A stretch of DNA of 32,000 nucleotides from Moraxella nasovis (GCF_022701215.1 NZ_CP089976.1:1050001-1082000), one strand, 5' to 3'; positions 7,709 through 14,345 are shown, numbered from the stretch's first letter. The notes: generated from the letters alone by a model not told the origin. Program-made: numbers and translations.

Positions 7709-9028
7709 GTGGACTTATTTTTTAACCTTGCTATGATCGCTCTGCTGATTTTGGTATCAAGTTTTTTCTCTATTTCTGAGATTGCCTTGGCAGGGGCTCG
7801 CAAAATTAAGCTAAAACTCATCTTGGAAGGTGGCGACAAGCGTGCCGAGAAAATCATGCGTCTGCAGGAGCATTCTGCTGACTTTTTCGCCACTTCGCAA
7901 ATTGGATTAAATGCAGTCGCCATCTTGGGCGGTTCGGTGGGTGAAGGGGCTTTGCGTCCTTATTTTGCCGATTTTATTGGGCATTTTTATCAAGGCGTGT
8001 GGCTAGATAACATCGCATTTTTTACGTCTTTTGTGGTGGTTACATTGCTGTTTATCTTGTATGCCGACCTTATCCCCAAACGCATTGCGATGATTAACCC
8101 TGAAAAAATCGCTTTGATGGTCATTGAGCCTGTGCTGATGGTCATCAAAATCATCAAGCCTTTGGTGTGGGTGATTAACGGTCTTGCCAATCTGACCTTT
8201 CGTCTTTTTAAAATCAATACCACCAGAGAAGATAACATCACCTTTGATGATGTGTCTGCCATCGTGGACGCAGGGGCAGAGGCAGGCGTGGTCTTGCAAC
8301 AAGAACAGCATTTTATTGAGAATGTCTTTGAATTAGAAGAGCGTACCGTGCCATCATCAATGACAGTGCGTGAAGATGTGGTATTTTTTACCTTAGATGA
8401 GAGCGAAGAGAATATCCGCCAAAAGATTGCTGATTATCCGTATTCCAAATTCTTGGTGTGTAATACCAATGTTGATCAGGTCATCGGTTATGTGGATACG
8501 AAGGACATTTTGGTCAGATTGCTCAATAACCAATCATTCGTTCAGCTCAACGAAAGCGTTATCCGCAATGTGCTGATTATTCCTGATACGCTGACACTCT
8601 CAGAGCTATTGGATAAATTTCGTGCCAGCAAAGAAAAGTTCGCCGTGGTCATCAACGAATACGCTTGGGTGGTCGGCATCATCACGCTATCAGACATCAT
8701 GATGACGGTGATGGGCGATTGGGTTGCCCCTACTGATGAAGACCAACAGATTATCCGCCGTGATGAAAGCTCGTGGCTCATTGATGGTAGCACGCCCATT
8801 GATGATGTCAAGCACGCTTTGGACGTGGCTGATTTTGCCGATTGGGATCATTATGAGACCTTGGCAGGCTTTATCATGTACCGCTTACGCAAAATCCCAA
8901 GACCTGCTGATTTTGTCATGCACGAAAATTTTAAATTTGAAGTGGTGGACATTGACCATTTTAAAATTGACCAAGTGCTCGTAACTCGTCTATCTGGCGG
9001 TGATGAAGTAGATAGAGATTGGGTGTGA
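7709..9028 (+). CDS. CNNM/TlyC-family membrane protein (DUF21 - CBS pair - CorC_HlyC), putative divalent-cation efflux
   Basis: 439 aa with four N-terminal TM helices, a central CBS-like region (VRED..., IITLSDIM) and a C-terminal transporter-associated domain. It has a GTG start. Confidence 0.8.
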   Translation: MDLFFNLAMIALLILVSSFFSISEIALAGARKIKLKLILEGGDKRAEKIMRLQEHSADFFATSQIGLNAVAILGGSVGEGALRPYFADFIGHFYQGVWLDNIAFFTSFVVVTLLFILYADLIPKRIAMINPEKIALMVIEPVLMVIKIIKPLVWVINGLANLTFRLFKINTTREDNITFDDVSAIVDAGAEAGVVLQQEQHFIENVFELEERTVPSSMTVREDVVFFTLDESEENIRQKIADYPYSKFLVCNTNVDQVIGYVDTKDILVRLLNNQSFVQLNESVIRNVLIIPDTLTLSELLDKFRASKEKFAVVINEYAWVVGIITLSDIMMTVMGDWVAPTDEDQQIIRRDESSWLIDGSTPIDDVKHALDVADFADWDHYETLAGFIMYRLRKIPRPADFVMHENFKFEVVDIDHFKIDQVLVTRLSGGDEVDRDWV

Positions 9029-9046
9029 GCGACTAGGCGTGATTTG

Positions 9047-9078
9047 AAAATGCAAGTTTGAGCTTGCATTTTTTATTT
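9047..9078 (+). terminator. Rho-independent terminator after the CNNM gene
   Basis: AAAATGCAAG-TTTGAG-CTTGCATTTT followed by TTATTT. Confidence 0.7.
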
Positions 9079-9135
9079 GAAAAAAAGGTTGATTGTGTTT
9101 GAAATATTTTGTTACATTTATATTTAAAAAATATA

Positions 9136-9165
9136 TTGACAAAATTTTGAAAAATAACATATTTA
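9136..9165 (+). promoter_or_regulatory. Sigma70-like promoter for the AT-rich cassette
   Basis: Perfect -35 TTGACA at 9136-9141. A -10-like element (CATATT/TATTTA) lies at 16-18-nt spacing around 9158-9165. The background is very AT-rich, so this is tentative. Confidence 0.4.
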
Positions 9166-9183
9166 AACCGTACCGAAATAATA

Positions 9184-9203
9184 TTACATAATATATTATG
9201 TAA
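9184..9203. promoter_or_regulatory. Perfect 20-bp palindrome (operator-like) in the leader of the small ORF
   Basis: TTACATAATATATTATGTAA is its own reverse complement. It lies about 20 nt downstream of the putative -10 and 52 nt upstream of the ATG at 9256. Confidence 0.5.
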
Positions 9204-9255
9204 ATAAATCATTTGGGTACATTTAACATTAACTTTTAGTAATAAGGATTTTATC

Positions 9256-9366
9256 ATGAAAAGTCAAGTTAAATTAATTGCCAAACAACTACCTGTTGCT
9301 CAAAAAGCAAATGCTGGTAAAATGGAGAGAAAAAAAGCTAAGGCTGCTGCGTGTATGTTTGAGTGA
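9256..9366 (+). CDS. 36-aa Lys/Ala-rich peptide MKSQVKLIAKQLPVAQKANAGKMERKKAKAAACMFE (candidate precursor peptide; not in the ORF track)
   Basis: I translated this by hand. ATG at 9256 is preceded by ATAAGGATTTT (AAGGA 7 nt upstream), and almost the same ATAAGGATTTT string precedes the next gene. It stops at TGA 9364-9366 and a terminator hairpin follows 28 nt later. Confidence 0.5.
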   Translation: MKSQVKLIAKQLPVAQKANAGKMERKKAKAAACMFE

Positions 9367-9394
9367 TTTTTCTCAATAAGTAGTTTAGTGTAAG

Positions 9395-9427
9395 GCAATA
9401 AGAATTTTAATGTTCTTATTGCTTTTT
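9395..9427 (+). terminator. Intrinsic terminator/attenuator between the small ORF and the downstream genes
   Basis: GCAATAAGAA (9395-9404), an 8-nt loop, then TTCTTATTGC (9413-9422) and TTTTT (9423-9427). The stem is a perfect 10 bp. Confidence 0.65.
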
Positions 9428-9452
9428 GGATTTAACACATAAGGATTTTCAT

Positions 9453-9866
9453 ATGGTTATTGATGCATCAATTCAGGATTATATAGAATGTTTGGATTTT
9501 TATTGGATTAAGAAAAAACTACTGTCTTTAAGTGCTGATGGAGATTCCAAAAATTGGACTTTGGAGGGCGTGGAAGATGCAATACGCCAATATAAAAATT
9601 TTATGATATTAATGAAAATTTATGATGGAACAAGTGAAAAAATAGTGCCTTCTGTTGAAGTTGATGTTATTTGGCATAATCATATTTTAGATACCAAAGC
9701 CTATTTTAAAGATTGTGAAGTGATATATGGTAGATATATGCACCATTTTCCTTATTTTGGAATAAGAAGCAAGGAAGATTATCAAGATTTAAATCAGTCT
9801 TTTGATAGAACTCAGGAGTTATATTTCCAGCATTTTGGTGAATATATGTATGAAATTGATTTCTGA
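9453..9866 (+). CDS. Stand-alone GRDP-like (DUF1399) domain protein, about 137 aa
   Basis: AIRQYKNFMILMK...VPSVEVDVIWHNHILDTKAYFKDCEVIYGRYMHHFPYFG follows my recollection of the plant GRDP N-terminal domain pattern (AI.RYK...VP.D.EWIWHCHRLNP.RY..DCE..YGR). ATG at 9453 follows AAGGATTTTCAT; the track start at 9426 is a TTG inside the terminator T-tract. Confidence 0.7.
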   Translation: MVIDASIQDYIECLDFYWIKKKLLSLSADGDSKNWTLEGVEDAIRQYKNFMILMKIYDGTSEKIVPSVEVDVIWHNHILDTKAYFKDCEVIYGRYMHHFPYFGIRSKEDYQDLNQSFDRTQELYFQHFGEYMYEIDF

Positions 9867-11202
9867 TTTTTCTTTTTCTTGGAAAGATGAATTAAAACTC
9901 ACATCGGCATTTATCATTAATCGCTTGATGCCGATACTTGTTTTTTTTACTGCTTTTATTTTGGTATTAAATAAAGCTGAACCAAATCAGATTGATGAGT
10001 ATTCCATATATTCGTCCGTTTATAATAGTGCATTAGCTTTTGGTTTGGGTATGACATCTGGAATTCGTTTTTATAGCACTTATTATGCTTATCAGCGATT
10101 GTCTTTACTTCTTGTTAGTTTTGCTTTGTTTTTGGGTATTTTGATTTTTGGTGGATTTTTGATTTATACCAATAATTTTTTGCCAAGTAGTTTGCAAAAT
10201 AATACAGTTGCTTTGATGTTTGCATTGTTATTTCCTGTTGTATTCTGTTATGAATTTTTGGTTATTTTGGGTGAAAGTAAAAAAGCGGTCAAGGCAAGCA
10301 GTATTTCTAATTTAATTGCACTACCTATCTTTTTGATGGTGTTTTTTGTGATATTATGGGTGCTGCCCAATCAGCTGACTACTGTTGAGTTGGTTAGTAT
10401 GTCGCAACTTATCACAGAATGCCTACTTTTAACTGTGCTAATGGTTTATATACGAAAATTTGCTATAATTGATGATTGTCAGAATAATGGTAAGGGTGGT
10501 ATTGTCAATCAAGTGCCTATGCAAGCAGGTAATTTTTATATTATCAAAAGTATAGTTGTTTTTAGTTTTCCCATTATTGTTTTGCAGTTTTTAAAAAGAG
10601 TGGCTCAGAGTCAGTCATTGCTTTTTGTGAGCGATGTTACAAATTCGGTTGGTATTCTACAAACGTTATTTATGCTTGCTGTTTTATTCTCTGTTTTTGC
10701 AGCCGCATTTGCTAATAATGGTTTTGTGGTTTTAGCAAAAGAGTACCAGTCATGGAAAATTTCATCTTGGTGTTTAGTAAGGTCTTATTTTTTATATAAT
10801 GCTATTTTATTGGTTTTTACCTCTTTGTTATTGTTGTTTTTTATATTCTTATTAAACGTCTGCGATATTTACGATATTAAAAATCAGCCTTTTGTTAATT
10901 TTTTAAGGCATAATAATGCTTTAATATTTATTTTCTTATTGTCTGACATGGTATTTTGGTCTTTGCTTATGTATGTGCGTGCATTAGGCGATAGTTGGCG
11001 TATGCAGACGGTTTGGATTGTGGTGTTGGGCGTATTATTAGGTGTGGGGTTATTTTTATTTGATGTTAATTTGCCTTTAATCATCACGATATTTTTATTG
11101 GCAAATGTGATTAGTAGTTTGTTTTCTCTTTATTGGATTTATCGGCATATTGATTTAAAAATAAAAGCAATGTCTTTTAAACCTAAATTTAATTCTCCCT
11201 AA
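9850..11202 (+). CDS. Polytopic (about 12-14 TM) membrane protein, MOP/MATE/Wzx-like exporter topology
   Basis: 450 aa, almost entirely hydrophobic helices separated by short loops. ATG at 9850 overlaps the end of the DUF1399 gene by 17 nt, suggesting translational coupling. The gene is very AT-rich. Family assignment rests on topology only. Confidence 0.7.
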   Translation: MKLISDFSFSWKDELKLTSAFIINRLMPILVFFTAFILVLNKAEPNQIDEYSIYSSVYNSALAFGLGMTSGIRFYSTYYAYQRLSLLLVSFALFLGILIFGGFLIYTNNFLPSSLQNNTVALMFALLFPVVFCYEFLVILGESKKAVKASSISNLIALPIFLMVFFVILWVLPNQLTTVELVSMSQLITECLLLTVLMVYIRKFAIIDDCQNNGKGGIVNQVPMQAGNFYIIKSIVVFSFPIIVLQFLKRVAQSQSLLFVSDVTNSVGILQTLFMLAVLFSVFAAAFANNGFVVLAKEYQSWKISSWCLVRSYFLYNAILLVFTSLLLLFFIFLLNVCDIYDIKNQPFVNFLRHNNALIFIFLLSDMVFWSLLMYVRALGDSWRMQTVWIVVLGVLLGVGLFLFDVNLPLIITIFLLANVISSLFSLYWIYRHIDLKIKAMSFKPKFNSP

Positions 11203-11939
11203 ATCTCCACCGCCACCACCGAGCAGTCATCACGTCCACGCCGTTTTTTCAGATTATGAAGCATGATGGCAAGGCGGTCGGTCAGCGTGGACTGGCTGTG
11301 CCACATGAGCGTCAGCTCGTCCATGCTAAATTCATCCGTCAAGCCGTCTGTACAGATGAGTAAAGTTTGCCCTTGTGTGAGCGTGTGCGTGGCGTGGTGG
11401 ATTTTAAAGTCGTACTCATTAGGGTCAGCGATGAGACACTCCGCCAAACCGCCATACATCTTAGCATATTCCACACCGTCTTTGATGTCATCATGGAGTA
11501 GCTCGTTTAGTATCGTGTGGTCGTGGCTTAATTTGTGCCACACGCCATCATCAATCACAAACACCGAGCTGTCCCCCACATTAAAAATTAGGCACGCTCC
11601 TGTTTCATCAATCACCGCTCCTGCGATGGTCGTTGCCGACCCCAAAGCGGTGGGGGCGATGTGATTGCAAAATTTATCAAAATACTCATCAAAAAACGCC
11701 CGAGTTCCCACCGCTACCGCAGGCGTGCTTGCAATGGCATTTAACCAAAAACGGCTTGCCAAATGGCTTTTTGGGCTAGATGACACACCGTCCGCCACCG
11801 CCACACAAAAGGGCATAGCAGGTGTGGGAACGGTTTTGGTGTGGTGCAAGGCGACATGGCGAACACTTGTACCGTCAAATAGTGCATCTTGATTGACCGC
11901 TTTGCCGTCTGCTTTGATTTGAAAATAGGCGATGAGCAT
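11199..11939 (-). CDS. PP2C-family Ser/Thr protein phosphatase (246 aa)
   Basis: PP2C motifs appear in order: AVADGVSSS, NVGDSSVFV, ICTDGLTDE, and RDDCSVVAVEI at the C-terminus. ATG at 11939 is preceded by ACAGGAAAAGCC. The track start at 12008 is a TTG upstream of a hairpin. Confidence 0.8.
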   Translation of the reverse strand: MLIAYFQIKADGKAVNQDALFDGTSVRHVALHHTKTVPTPAMPFCVAVADGVSSSPKSHLASRFWLNAIASTPAVAVGTRAFFDEYFDKFCNHIAPTALGSATTIAGAVIDETGACLIFNVGDSSVFVIDDGVWHKLSHDHTILNELLHDDIKDGVEYAKMYGGLAECLIADPNEYDFKIHHATHTLTQGQTLLICTDGLTDEFSMDELTLMWHSQSTLTDRLAIMLHNLKKRRGRDDCSVVAVEI

Positions 11940-11970
11940 GGCTTTTCCTGTTAAATTACCGAAAATCAAA

Positions 11971-11997
11971 ATGGGGCAATATCGCCCCATTTTTTTT
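11971..11997. terminator. Hairpin with flanking A/T runs between the middle gene and the PP2C gene (bidirectional terminator/attenuator-like)
   Basis: ATGGGGC-AATATC-GCCCCAT followed by TTTTTTT on the plus strand. On the minus strand the same stem is followed by TTTGATTTT. Confidence 0.5.
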
Positions 11998-12010
11998 AAA
12001 TCACACAAAT

Positions 12011-12484
12011 TTAAACACTTAAAGGCAATCCACGAGCCTTGCGGTTTTCAGCAACTTTGGCGTACCAATCTTTGATGACTTTGGTGGTTTCGGCATCATC
12101 GCTGGCACAGCGGTTTAATGTCCCTGGGCGCTGTGGACATTCACGCACGTCTGTACCGTCAATTTCCCAATCCAGCACACGCACAGGACGGCGATTTTTT
12201 ATCCATTCGGTGCGTTCGTCGTTATCGTCGTTGATAAAGTACGCACCGCCAATAACTTGCACAAGGGCGACAAAGGTTGCACCTTGGCGAATGGCGATGA
12301 TATCATTGACTTTGATGTCGTTTTTAAACATGTCAATTTGCTCTGCTCCGCCATCCCATTCGCCCAAGCCAATAAAACCGTGATGTTCTAGGATATAGGG
12401 AATGTGCTTGGCAAAATCGTACATTTCACCGGTGGGGTGCATTTGCATATGCCAAAAGTTGTTGGGGGTAAAGGTGTTGTTCAT
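12011..12484 (-). CDS. Hypothetical 157-aa protein, family not recognised (possibly a PUA/EVE-like small beta-barrel)
   Basis: ATG at 12484 is preceded by AAGGAG with a 6-nt spacer. It begins MNNTFTPNNFWHMQMHP...GFIGLGEW...VNDIIAIRQGATFVALVQVIG. The fold suggestion is only a pattern impression. Confidence 0.65.
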   Translation of the reverse strand: MNNTFTPNNFWHMQMHPTGEMYDFAKHIPYILEHHGFIGLGEWDGGAEQIDMFKNDIKVNDIIAIRQGATFVALVQVIGGAYFINDDNDERTEWIKNRRPVRVLDWEIDGTDVRECPQRPGTLNRCASDDAETTKVIKDWYAKVAENRKARGLPLSV

Positions 12485-12509
12485 GATAAACTCCTTAGGT
12501 ATCAATGAG

Positions 12510-13034
12510 TTAGGTGTTAATGGTAATGCTGATTTGACTTTCATCTATGCCAAGTGTCAAAGCAAGTCTGCGTTTGGCTTCGGGAATGGTTAAAGGTTCA
12601 TTAGAAACTGATGTGATTTCGGTTGGCGTTTGGGATAGCATGGTTGGCACAACTTGATGAAACTCTAACGTATTCACATCAATGCCAAAATCTTGCAAGG
12701 TGTAATACGCCACAGGATTGGCATTACCCTTGATTTTTTCTCCATTAACTGTTGATATACTAATCTCTGCATATTCGCTGATGTGGACTTCATTGCGTTC
12801 ACCATAGGTATGGTTGGGTTTGATGTCGCTGATTTTACCAATTAAAAAAGCGGTATGAGATGGTGCTTCGGGCTTCCCCCATTCGCCGATTAACTGTACA
12901 CAAATCAAGTATTGACAGCGTTTGGCACGATTTTTATTAAACCGCCAGTTGCCACTATACCCTTTTGCTAAAATTTCGCCTTTACCTTGATAAGTAAAAA
13001 CCACCAAACATTCTTGATTAACAGTATTCACCAT
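12510..13034 (-). CDS. Hypothetical about 174-aa protein, family not recognised
   Basis: First gene of the minus-strand operon. GGAG lies just upstream of ATG 13034 (GTG 13031 is an alternative start). The N-terminal about 125 aa look beta-rich, followed by a Thr/Ser/Pro linker and the C-terminal tail PLTIPEAKRRLALTLGIDESQISITINT. Confidence 0.65.
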   Translation of the reverse strand: MVNTVNQECLVVFTYQGKGEILAKGYSGNWRFNKNRAKRCQYLICVQLIGEWGKPEAPSHTAFLIGKISDIKPNHTYGERNEVHISEYAEISISTVNGEKIKGNANPVAYYTLQDFGIDVNTLEFHQVVPTMLSQTPTEITSVSNEPLTIPEAKRRLALTLGIDESQISITINT

Positions 13035-13057
13035 ATACTCCAATTAACTGTTAATAT

Positions 13058-13086
13058 ATGATAATGTATGGCATGATATTTTGCAA
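13058..13086 (-). promoter_or_regulatory. Sigma70-like promoter for the three-gene operon
   Basis: Minus strand reads TTGCAA (13086-13081), a 17-nt spacer, then TATCAT (13063-13058), about 25 nt upstream of the start codon. Confidence 0.45.
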
Positions 13087-13097
13087 GCATATATGAG

Positions 13098-13715
13098 TTA
13101 AAATTTTAAGAGTTTTTTTTTAAAATTTTTGATTTTTATATCAATTTTAATCCCCCCCCTATCCCCCCAACCTGCCCACCAGCCAAACACAACATTAACG
13201 CACATTAGAGCGAACAGCACTTGCAAGGACAGCTCCCAAGTCCCTGTTTTTTCAAATAATTTCCCCAAAGTCAGCGGACCAAAAAACGCCACGCCATAGC
13301 CCACCGCCTGCACCATGCCCGACAAATCCCAAGCGGTCTCTGTGCTTGTTGTGCGGATAGAAAATAGCATGAGCGACAGCGTAAAAATCCCCGTCGCCCC
13401 AAAGCCCAAAAGTGCCGACCACACCACAAGATGATTAGGTAGCCATAGCACACCGCCCACGCCCACAGCATTGGCGATACTGCACGCCAAGGCGATGAGC
13501 CGAATGGGGAAATTTCGTTTAATAAAAAAGGTCAGCAAAAATATTGCCACAGGGGCAGTCAGCTGAAACACGAGTGCCAAAAGTCCATCTTGATACTCAC
13601 TTAGCCCATAGCCCATGCCGATGGACGGCAAAAAACTGGCAACAGTATAAAACAATAACGACTGTATACCCATATATACGCCCATGTACCACGCATTTGG
13701 GTTTTGCCAAGGGTT
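13098..13715 (-). pseudogene. Remnant: C-terminal six-TM half of a CynX/YeaN-like MFS transporter
   Basis: From NPWQNPNAWYMGVYMGIQSLLFYTVASFLPSI onward it resembles the second half of CynX-type MFS proteins. No N-terminal half is present. The upstream part of the ORF is Pro/Ser-rich read-through overlapping the cobW remnant, and the 3' tail runs through a G8 tract. Confidence 0.5.
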
Positions 13716-14345
13716 AAAGGGGCTTGGGCTGTGGGTAGCGCTGGGTTTTGGTGGTGAGATGGGCGATGTGGCTTGTTTTGCCATCATCGATGACGATGGT
13801 GGCGGTAGGATTGATGGTGTGTATCCATTCATATAGATGAGCCAATTCATCGCCACTTAGCATATCTGTGCGATTGATGGCGATGATGTCAGCGTATTTG
13901 GCGTGCACTTGATAGCCGTCATGATTGCGATAGCGTTCTTGTTGCCATTGGGCGGCATTTAGCACACAAATCACCGCCTGCAAGTCAAGACTGCTCTGAT
14001 AGTGGCTTTCACTAAGCTTGGCAATCAGCTCATTAGGGTGGGCAAGCCCTGTCGGCTCGATGATAAGGCGTGCGGGGCGGTGGTCTGCGAGCAGTCGCAC
14101 CAAGGCAATTTGGAGTGGTAATTGACTGGTGCAACAGATACAGCCGCCGCTGACTTCCTTGATGGCGACATCATTGGCGGTGAATAATTTGCCATCAATG
14201 CCAATTTTGCCAAATTCATTCACCAAAATCGCCCATTTCTCATCTGATTTATGGGCGAGTAAGGCGTTGATGAAAGTGGTCTTGCCAGTACCCAAAAAAA
14301 ACCTGTAATCAGCGTGTTGGGCGTGCAGATTGATGAGTGTTAAAA
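13714..14345 (-). pseudogene. Remnant of a CobW/G3E-family GTPase (zinc-chaperone-like) gene, frameshifted and 3'-truncated
   Basis: It has the P-loop LGTGKTTFINALL, the CICC metal motif (GGCICCTS) and a switch region. Upstream codons ...NTLITGFF sit in a different frame across an 8-nt homopolymer (14294-14301). There is no canonical start codon upstream, and the C-terminal CobW_C domain is absent. Confidence 0.65.

Follow-up and report, generated by a model that had tools for sequence, protein, structure and literature searches.

An islet of candidate nucleic-acid-reader cassettes beside a kinase-less PP2C phosphatase gene in Moraxella

We analyzed a stretch of 32,000 nucleotides from Moraxella nasovis (GCF_022701215.1, NZ_CP089976.1:1050001-1082000; hereafter the window) that carries, on its minus strand, a promoter followed by two small genes, here called A and B, a hairpin and a gene for a PP2C phosphatase (Table 1). 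The reading that we favor, at a probability of about 0.42, is that this locus is an islet made up of mobile cassettes for nucleic acid readers that take part in phage or mobile element conflict, with the PP2C as a Moraxella-specific partner of B. Such an islet would have been assembled locally from independently mobile single-gene cassettes and would not be a universal three-gene system. A preliminary description of the locus had proposed a three-gene signaling or defense module, which is partly supported: the genes are syntenic in Moraxella as a variable array but not outside the genus, where A and B occur separately and without PP2C. Its suggestion of mobile or defense-type cargo is strongly supported by data on plasmids, a prophage hotspot and domain fusions. 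What the analysis shows directly, and what the favored reading is built on, is the structure of the genes, the families they belong to, their predicted folds and domain fusions, their distribution among genomes and their synteny in Moraxella. A role in conflict is suggested by the presence of the cassettes on tiny plasmids and in a prophage defense hotspot, by their adjacency to Abi_2, NYN, OLD and toxin-antitoxin genes and by the homology of B to immune sensors.

Protein B appears to belong to DUF8426 (PF28530), an assignment made through the annotation of its homologues. Many proteins 44-63% identical to B carry PF28530 on record, and for the 67%-identical orthologue in the closest relative of the locus (L033) the entry reads "DUF8426, weak." B itself finds nothing in the Pfam, NCBIfam, PADLOC or PDB sequence libraries, a profile search of the PDB included. 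Mean column identity across the family is 58% (Moraxella, Neisseria, Kingella, Achromobacter, Pseudomonas, Photobacterium and Proteus), and the invariant residues include W11, H12, M13, Q14 and P17, which form a WHMQxxP motif, as well as R98, R99, P100, D105 and W106. The AlphaFold2 (AF2) model of B (pLDDT 90, pTM 0.87) clearly matches a PUA-like pseudo-barrel of the EVE/YTH type. Foldseek pairs the model with the EVE protein PH1033 (1wmm/2hd9; E 1.5e-4, probability 1.0, TM 0.50-0.55), with YTH m6A readers, MJECL36 and Rpa0253, and with the EVE domain of the modification-dependent nuclease VcaM4I; all 27 PDB chains found at E <= 1e-3 are EVE, YTH or ASCH-like. The invariant residues W11, W94, W106, F53 and R98/R99/R102 are compatible with an aromatic cage for a flipped modified base. 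Some family members of 146-148 aa are named "pyruvate kinase" in NCBI records (P0044, P0065, P0078 and P0095), almost certainly a propagated annotation error.

The relatives of B tie it to immune ATPases. Searched with a profile of B, 1.84 billion cluster representatives yielded 406 relatives; among the best 150 of these 406 are 36 complete stand-alone proteins and 83 fusions of at least 300 aa, and in 75 of the 83 the B domain is N-terminal. When 84 long members were scanned, 53 had an AAA_5 domain with the McrB-type GTMNxxDRS consensus, and 24 had an ABC-type ATPase (AAA_15/AAA_21). PADLOC models of the REase_II/LlaJI-like kind matched 50 of the 84 and PtuA matched 24 (up to 7.8e-89), with weaker matches to AriA and AbiLi as well. 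Because of these fusions to McrB/LlaJI-like GTPases and Septu PtuA-like ATPases, B is best described, at the level of sequence, as the detached, free-standing form of the sensor domain that lies at their N termini. A B-like N-terminal domain is also found in a 503-aa "AAA family ATPase" of Arcobacter cloacae pACLO (L018 5995-7506); this gene, followed by one for a 241-aa unknown protein, lies between the cas6 and cas7 genes of a type I-B CRISPR-Cas operon.

Protein A matches phrog_37247 (E 1.5e-30, residues 8-173 on profile positions 5-188 of 189) and has no other sequence match in Pfam, NCBIfam, PADLOC or the PDB, by sequence or profile. The preliminary description had called both small proteins unrecognized, which holds for Pfam, NCBIfam and PADLOC but not for the phrog_37247 profile of A or for the DUF8426 records of B's relatives; neither protein falls into a housekeeping family. 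The AF2 model of A (pLDDT 85) places residues 8-125 in a domain rich in beta-strands; a linker, disordered and variable, connects it to a C-terminal helix-strand tail that is strongly conserved (LTIxEAKxxLAxxLGVxxxxIxIxI). Against the PDB, Foldseek returned DrmA (E 8e-3, probability 0.99), the ASCH domain of TRIP4, Lon-N and YTH (E 0.01-0.1), and the 5hmC-specific PD-T4-3; against viral proteins, it returned uncharacterized phage proteins (E 2.3e-4 and 5.4e-4) and some named ASCH. These matches are consistent but weak, and they make a PUA-like barrel plausible for A. The early guess that both proteins are PUA-like thus stands clearly for the predicted fold of B and plausibly for that of A. The loose pattern noted earlier in both proteins reflects a fold class at most, not a common family: alignment of the A and B profiles by hhalign gave a probability of 0.2%, so that no homology between them is detectable and the idea of paralogues was rejected. 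Two further candidate assignments for A were rejected. The name "Nmad3 domain-containing" on one A cluster (Erwinia) has no Pfam match behind it, and the only paper with the term is unrelated; similarities of the C-terminal tail to a helix-turn-helix or a peripheral-subunit-binding motif are at chance level only.

Distribution points to mobility. A is found in 193 plasmid records, 163 of them mobilizable and most of 4.5-6.4 kb, in Acinetobacter, Escherichia, Salmonella and Enterobacter, with a few in Actinobacteria and Alphaproteobacteria. On the aminoglycoside resistance plasmid pRAY*-v1 (L005 1341-2687), mobC-mobA is followed by A and then by an Abi_2 gene; on p6_060092, A is essentially the sole cargo; and on the 4.6-kb Enterobacter roggenkampii pEr982-3 (L140 2481-4028), A heads an operon with a TPR gene and a gene with an NYN RNase domain. 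These arrangements suggest that A is a sensor or adaptor for interchangeable effectors (Abi_2 in one case, TPR and NYN in the other). In P2-like prophages of Escherichia coli, A lies between gpA/DinI and an OLD-like nuclease and portal, within the gpA-gpQ locus known as a hotspot and reservoir of antiphage systems (Rousset et al. 2022, PMC9122126). Only 8 of 5426 E. coli genomes have A in this hotspot, against 747 with a match to some portion of it, presumably its conserved flank. Elsewhere, A stands behind the Q antiterminator of a Pseudomonas prophage, and it is present in chromosomes too.

B is rarer on plasmids, with 11 found, mostly mobilizable and of 4.8-16 kb, where it usually stands alone beside mobilization or toxin-antitoxin genes; the mobilizable plasmids on which it is alone measure 4.8-11 kb. 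B also forms solitary chromosomal islets. In Kingella potus (L142 6001-6441) a stand-alone B sits between nuoE and nuoF, within the core operon for NADH dehydrogenase, as it does in related metagenome contigs (L055-L061), and in another lineage it lies in a hut operon beside a Phd/PIN toxin-antitoxin pair. A scan of viral contigs with B gave no match. The neighbors of B in 80 metagenome loci, 204 proteins in 144 clusters, include nuo, purA, RNR, integrases and Rep, and a search among them for a recurrent partner of B turned up no family that recurs beyond shared local synteny. A third family, DUF6530 (about 140 aa), occurs in 112 plasmid records, Gram-positive hosts included. It is one of only three annotated genes on 2.6-kb plasmids of E. 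coli, Shigella and Salmonella, and it is paired with B on Acinetobacter plasmids; DUF6530 loci were seen at L025 1310-1732, L029 1469-1888, L004 11183-11608 and on L137. Outside Moraxella, A, B and DUF6530 all travel alone, without PP2C, and none of the plasmids has A or B together with a PP2C.

Within Moraxella the cassettes come together in arrays of four kinds: A-B-PP2C (the window, L033 and one Moraxella metagenome-assembled genome), A-B-X-PP2C (Moraxella lacunata), DUF6530-B-PP2C and A-DUF6530-B-PP2C, so that DUF6530 either replaces or joins A. B and PP2C are in every variant seen, and B is the gene nearest PP2C except where X intervenes in M. lacunata. The same MFS gene precedes every array (L007, L011 and L026 among them), and each has a promoter-like site before its first cassette. 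L033 has no hairpin between these two genes; there, a 4-nt ATGA contains both the stop codon of B and the start codon of PP2C. Since the genes past PP2C vary among species while the MFS-array-PP2C order stays constant, PP2C travels with the islet. Synteny of the trio, whose absence from other genomes had been named at the outset as grounds for rejecting the module, did not extend beyond this one genus. A genome-collection scan for PP2C returned only M. lacunata and one Moraxella metagenome-assembled genome, which makes it uninformative on whether PP2C occurs without B.

The additional M. lacunata gene, X (L007 7123-7890), encodes 255 aa and ends 2 nt before the PP2C start; it is not in the window. 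Its weak Pfam UDG match (E 0.066) and its GRETRG and HHPS motifs, which follow one another as motifs A and B do in UDG, are a weak hint that X may be a protein of the DNA-glycosylase (UDG) superfamily. Distant relatives are found on large plasmids of Burkholderiales, Acetobacter and Vibrio. The possibility that X is a kinase was rejected, and no cognate kinase is present at the locus in related strains, an arrangement that would have made the phosphatase a conventional member of a kinase-phosphatase pair.

By its profile and motifs, the PP2C is a predicted metal-dependent phosphatase of the PPM family. It exceeds the gathering cut-off of Pfam PF13672 PP2C_2 (49.7 bits against 24, E 4.2e-13) and that of SpoIIE (30.9 bits against 25), and the metal-binding aspartates of motifs 1, 2, 5, 8 and 11 are all present: D18 (NQD), D50-G51 (ADGVSS), D123 (VGDS), D198-G199 (CTDGL) and D237/D238 (RDDCS). 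This agrees with the preliminary description, which had noted all the catalytic-motif blocks that it could recognize. The motifs align with those of Stp1 (2pk0) and tPphA (2j82), the best PDB sequence matches, and are kept in four Moraxella orthologues; orthologues in this genus are 65-67% identical. The protein is not a member of the Stp1/IreP equivalog NF033484, to which it scores 68.3 bits (E 6.6e-19) against a cut-off of 230. The description of the phosphatase as an orphan, made at the outset, is correct for the 32-kb window: none of the genes up to about 4 kb away encodes a kinase or an FHA, STAS or vWA protein, and no Hanks kinase catalytic-loop, DFG..APE or glycine-loop motif is present in any of the six frames. 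The adjacent partner that marks a kinase-phosphatase pair, a TerY-P triad or a partner-switching module (Hanks kinase, TerY, FHA or STAS/anti-sigma protein) is absent.

Two observations elsewhere touch on the phosphatase. A PP2C_2 gene whose product is 27% identical to that of the window is carried on Acinetobacter plasmids of 11.7 and 14.4 kb (L135 6002-7822; L136 9525-10750), directly 3' of a gene for a conserved 120-aa unknown protein and, on one of the two, with a 177-aa unknown farther upstream. Neither small protein proved to be A, B or DUF6530 when searched with hidden Markov models, and the plasmids may carry a parallel cassette of a small protein with a kinase-less PP2C. In addition, a short, low-coverage metagenome contig (L054 1185-1550) has only the C-terminal part of a PP2C (...CSDGLTDG...DDCSVV), 3' of a B homologue of 56% identity; it is either what decay has left of a B-PP2C pair in another lineage or an artifact of assembly.

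From these data we infer nucleic acid binding, a defensive direction and a functional coupling of B to PP2C. Under the favored reading, A (ASCH-like, with a C-terminal docking tail) and B (EVE/YTH-like) would bind nucleic acid, most likely modified phage or otherwise foreign DNA. Their most probable role would be phage exclusion, through sequestration of the target or recruitment of an effector. Elsewhere the effector would be supplied by a neighboring gene, such as Abi_2 in pRAY or TPR and NYN in pEr982-3. In Moraxella the PP2C would serve as a lineage-specific output or reset enzyme of B.

Several findings weigh against this reading. A literature search produced no mention of DUF8426 or DUF6530, and PADLOC-DB 2.0 held no match to A, B or PP2C at E <= 1. 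The Pfam EVE, YTH and ASCH models recover neither B nor its relatives at E <= 1, and those for ASCH, EVE, Nmad3 and YTH recover neither A nor seven of its relatives. Neither A nor B has a sequence match in the PDB, even as a profile, and the structural matches of A there are marginal (E 8e-3 to 0.1, TM about 0.4). Outside Moraxella the neighbors of B are heterogeneous and largely housekeeping, not a classic defense-island signature. A and B contain no effector domain, yet they are the sole cargo of tiny plasmids, so that a defense mechanism would need sequestration or an effector supplied by the host. As for the phosphatase, PP2C is absent from all 11 plasmids with B, and 74 of the 80 metagenome loci have no A, DUF6530, X or PP2C near B; the others are three M. 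lacunata-like loci (A, X and PP2C), two with DUF6530 and the one with a PP2C fragment. In M. nasovis itself, the terminator-like hairpin parts B from PP2C, and the adjacency of the two genes could be simple vertical synteny in a single genus.

The doubts about the phosphatase can be taken further. The genes might be coincidental neighbors, the PP2C being an ordinary Ser/Thr phosphatase with its kinase or substrates encoded elsewhere in the 2.03-Mb genome, and A and B unrelated selfish cassettes that inserted, with no functional link, at a hotspot of recombination flanked by the MFS gene and PP2C. We consider this unlikely, though still deserving of serious weight. It accounts for the near-universal absence of PP2C beside A and B, for the hairpin 5' of PP2C and for the resemblance of the enzyme to Stp1/tPphA-type phosphatases, and the changing content of the MFS-PP2C interval (A, DUF6530, B or X) is what an insertion hotspot would produce. 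However, chance insertion explains poorly why B is retained in every Moraxella variant, always next to PP2C apart from the M. lacunata case, or why PP2C moves with the islet when the downstream genes differ; moreover, the overlap of B and PP2C in L033 is typical of translational coupling. The similar two-gene layout on the Acinetobacter plasmids and a score far under the Stp1 equivalog cut-off also speak for a phosphatase that is not simply a bystander.

A different explanation, to our minds slightly less probable again, keeps the reader function and reverses its direction. Free-standing readers could bind the very modified bases or nucleic acid features to which McrB-like and PtuA-like immune proteins respond through their homologous N-terminal domain. 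They would shield the DNA of the element in this way, or compete as dominant negatives with those sensors, and so favor the establishment of small plasmids, prophages and transforming DNA on entry into a new host. For an effector-less protein homologous to the sensor domain of defense ATPases, a role as an inhibitor is more readily explained than one in immunity, and all three families (A, B and DUF6530) are typically the only cargo of very small, host-hopping plasmids. B is found in Moraxella, Neisseria, Kingella, Acinetobacter and one member of the Pasteurellaceae, and many of these hosts are naturally competent and rich in restriction-modification systems, which is in favor of an anti-restriction role. 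Nevertheless, the contexts of A in the P2 gpA-gpQ hotspot and beside Abi_2 and NYN are enriched for defense rather than counter-defense. There is no sign of a location in a plasmid leading region, with the A of pRAY following the mob operon, and chromosomal copies in housekeeping operons are hard to fit with a purely element-selfish role. We know of no precedent for a reader-domain decoy.

Maintenance of the element, with A, B and DUF6530 serving replication, copy number, stability or addiction and the Moraxella copies being relics of integrated plasmids, is very unlikely: the concentration of all three families on very small plasmids, some of only 2.6 kb, and the lack of an identifiable rep gene on pRAY (PMC6160057), which carries A, are in its favor, but A is also found on plasmids that replicate by a RepM or ColE1-type system of their own, in prophages (P2-like and lambdoid) and in chromosomes, B lies in housekeeping operons and is fused to defense ATPases, and the predicted folds are those of nucleic acid readers and not of Rep, Par or known toxins. 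The presence of A on RepM and ColE1 plasmids and in prophages likewise argues against A as the missing Rep of pRAY; the pRAY paper describes a replicating deletion derivative without naming the open reading frames left in it.

A more unusual reading, in which the Moraxella array is a kinase-independent immune module of readers and phosphatase, is a long shot, about as improbable as plasmid maintenance. A, B and perhaps DUF6530 would then recognize a base intermediate, hypermodified or phosphorylated, in the DNA of an invader; the phosphorylated 5-hydroxymethyl-pyrimidines through which phages hypermodify thymidine are an example. The coupled PP2C would keep the protective modification from being completed by acting on a phosphate linked to nucleic acid or on a phosphoprotein of the phage, and the possible UDG-superfamily enzyme X of M. 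lacunata might contribute. More broadly, the three tiny-plasmid families would be effector-less, single-protein factors of immunity or counter-immunity that only read modified bases.

In the organization of the locus itself, the preliminary description proved accurate: the promoter, the two open reading frames of 174 and 157 aa with their ribosome-binding sites and 25-nt gap, the hairpin and the phosphatase gene were all found where it had placed them (Table 1). A and B are identical to annotated M. nasovis proteins on a 2.03-Mb contig, and the dozens to hundreds of homologues found for each mark them as real genes. Promoter-like sites in the window are not above chance (7 found against 7.0 expected from shuffled sequence), nor are terminator-like sites (2 against 3.7). 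The promoter is instead supported by conservation, since L033 has identical hexamers at the same 17-nt spacing although the spacer itself has diverged, and A and B are probably co-transcribed from this single promoter. The hairpin is peculiar to M. nasovis, with no counterpart in relatives, and its single occurrence in the window speaks against a repeated element. The segment between B and PP2C folds better than shuffled versions (z = -2.4), and because the hairpin resembles an intrinsic terminator, PP2C may be only partly co-transcribed in this species.

Table 1. Features of the Moraxella nasovis locus, with positions counted from the first nucleotide of the window
Feature	Position	Strand	Basis and remarks
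Sigma-70-like promoter, TTGCAA-17 nt-TATCAT	13058..13086	-	Consensus scan; 5' of gene A
Gene A, LU293_05300, 174 aa	12510..13034	-	Open reading frame with ribosome-binding site, homologues; ATG at 13034, stop ends at 12510, GGAG 5 nt before start
Gene B, LU293_05295, 157 aa	12011..12484	-	Open reading frame with ribosome-binding site, homologues; ATG at 12484, stop ends at 12011, AAGGAG, 25-nt gap from A
Terminator-like hairpin, 11-bp GC-rich stem, 4-nt loop, then UUUUGAUUUUC	11968..11993	-	Between B and PP2C
PP2C_2-family metal-dependent phosphatase gene, 246 aa	11199..11939	-	Pfam PF13672, motifs
Truncated MFS transporter gene	13098..13856	-	Pfam MFS_1 partial match; conserved upstream border of the islet

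The islet is surrounded by genes for CNNM/CorC, a GRDP-like protein, a membrane protein, the MFS and CobW fragments, DUF1615 and TesB. Decayed genes had been noted beside it, and this is borne out: by tblastn, the upstream MFS gene covers residues 200-392 only of its M. lacunata orthologue, and a 193-aa N-terminal fragment of a CobW/G3E GTPase abuts and overlaps it (window 13098-14295). The two fragments suggest a scar of deletion or rearrangement at the upstream border of the islet. On the other side, an AT-rich block (9000-11202; GC 0.28-0.31 against about 0.44 around it) contains a GRDP-like open reading frame of 146 aa at 9426-9866 and a gene for a 466-aa multi-pass membrane protein, without a Pfam match, at 9802-11202, which runs toward the PP2C gene and shares 4 nt with its end. 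This block looks like a separate, horizontally acquired insert.

Placing the locus among known systems helps to separate the familiar from the new. PUA-like readers of modified bases with EVE, YTH or ASCH domains occur in prokaryotic defense contexts, as in EVE-McrB (Bell et al. 2020, PMC7641849) and the EVE-HNH enzyme VcaM4I (PMC7897488), and stand-alone readers beside restriction or toxin-antitoxin genes are a described theme (PMC7641849); neither a phosphatase nor a plasmid is mentioned as an associate in this survey of EVE contexts. B, and plausibly A, resembles these readers in a predicted small beta-barrel, and the domain of B is used as the N-terminal specificity module of McrB-like GTPases. 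A and B differ in forming separate families (DUF8426 for B; phrog_37247, with a conserved C-terminal tail, for A), in having no effector fusion and in being mostly solitary cargo of tiny plasmids. With McrBC type IV restriction the locus shares the reader domain alone, as it has neither the McrB GTPase nor the McrC nuclease. The old and tin exclusion genes of P2 offer a parallel for A, whose homologues are rare, variable cargo of the same gpA-gpQ hotspot, next to an OLD-like nuclease; A is, however, unrelated in sequence to Tin and Old, and the copy in the window is chromosomal in Moraxella and not in a prophage.

For the phosphatase, the nearest comparison is with the PPM phosphatases Stp1, PstP and tPphA, which are paired with Hanks kinases and have the same catalytic fold and metal aspartates. 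The enzyme of the window departs from them in having ADGVSS in place of DGMGG, no adjoining kinase and a DUF8426 gene linked to it instead. PP2C beside type IV systems is known only within TerY-P triads (TerY vWA protein, PP2C and Ser/Thr kinase), which are CoCoNuT-associated (PMC11090510). The likeness to these triads lies in a PP2C beside components related to type IV restriction sensing; unlike them, neither the locus nor the rest of the 32-kb window has a vWA protein or kinase, and the partners of its phosphatase are reader-domain proteins only. Stand-alone PUA-like readers in conflict contexts are of a known kind, and what is new is the uncharacterized families and their Moraxella-specific link to a PP2C with no kinase in the window.

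On very small plasmids of Acinetobacter, Enterobacteriaceae and other bacteria, few genes form the only cargo as often as those of the uncharacterized families A, B and DUF6530. Because at least two of the families have predicted reader folds, one of them a detached McrB-like and Septu-like sensor, it is a testable hypothesis that they act on modified nucleic acid in the conflict between hosts, phages and mobile elements. The Moraxella locus, with its cassettes stacked beside a kinase-less PP2C, offers a natural place to begin with the question of whether such readers can have a phosphatase as their output or reset. If the readers were instead shields against type IV restriction, they would constitute a new class of anti-restriction proteins, with a bearing on how pRAY and other resistance plasmids spread.

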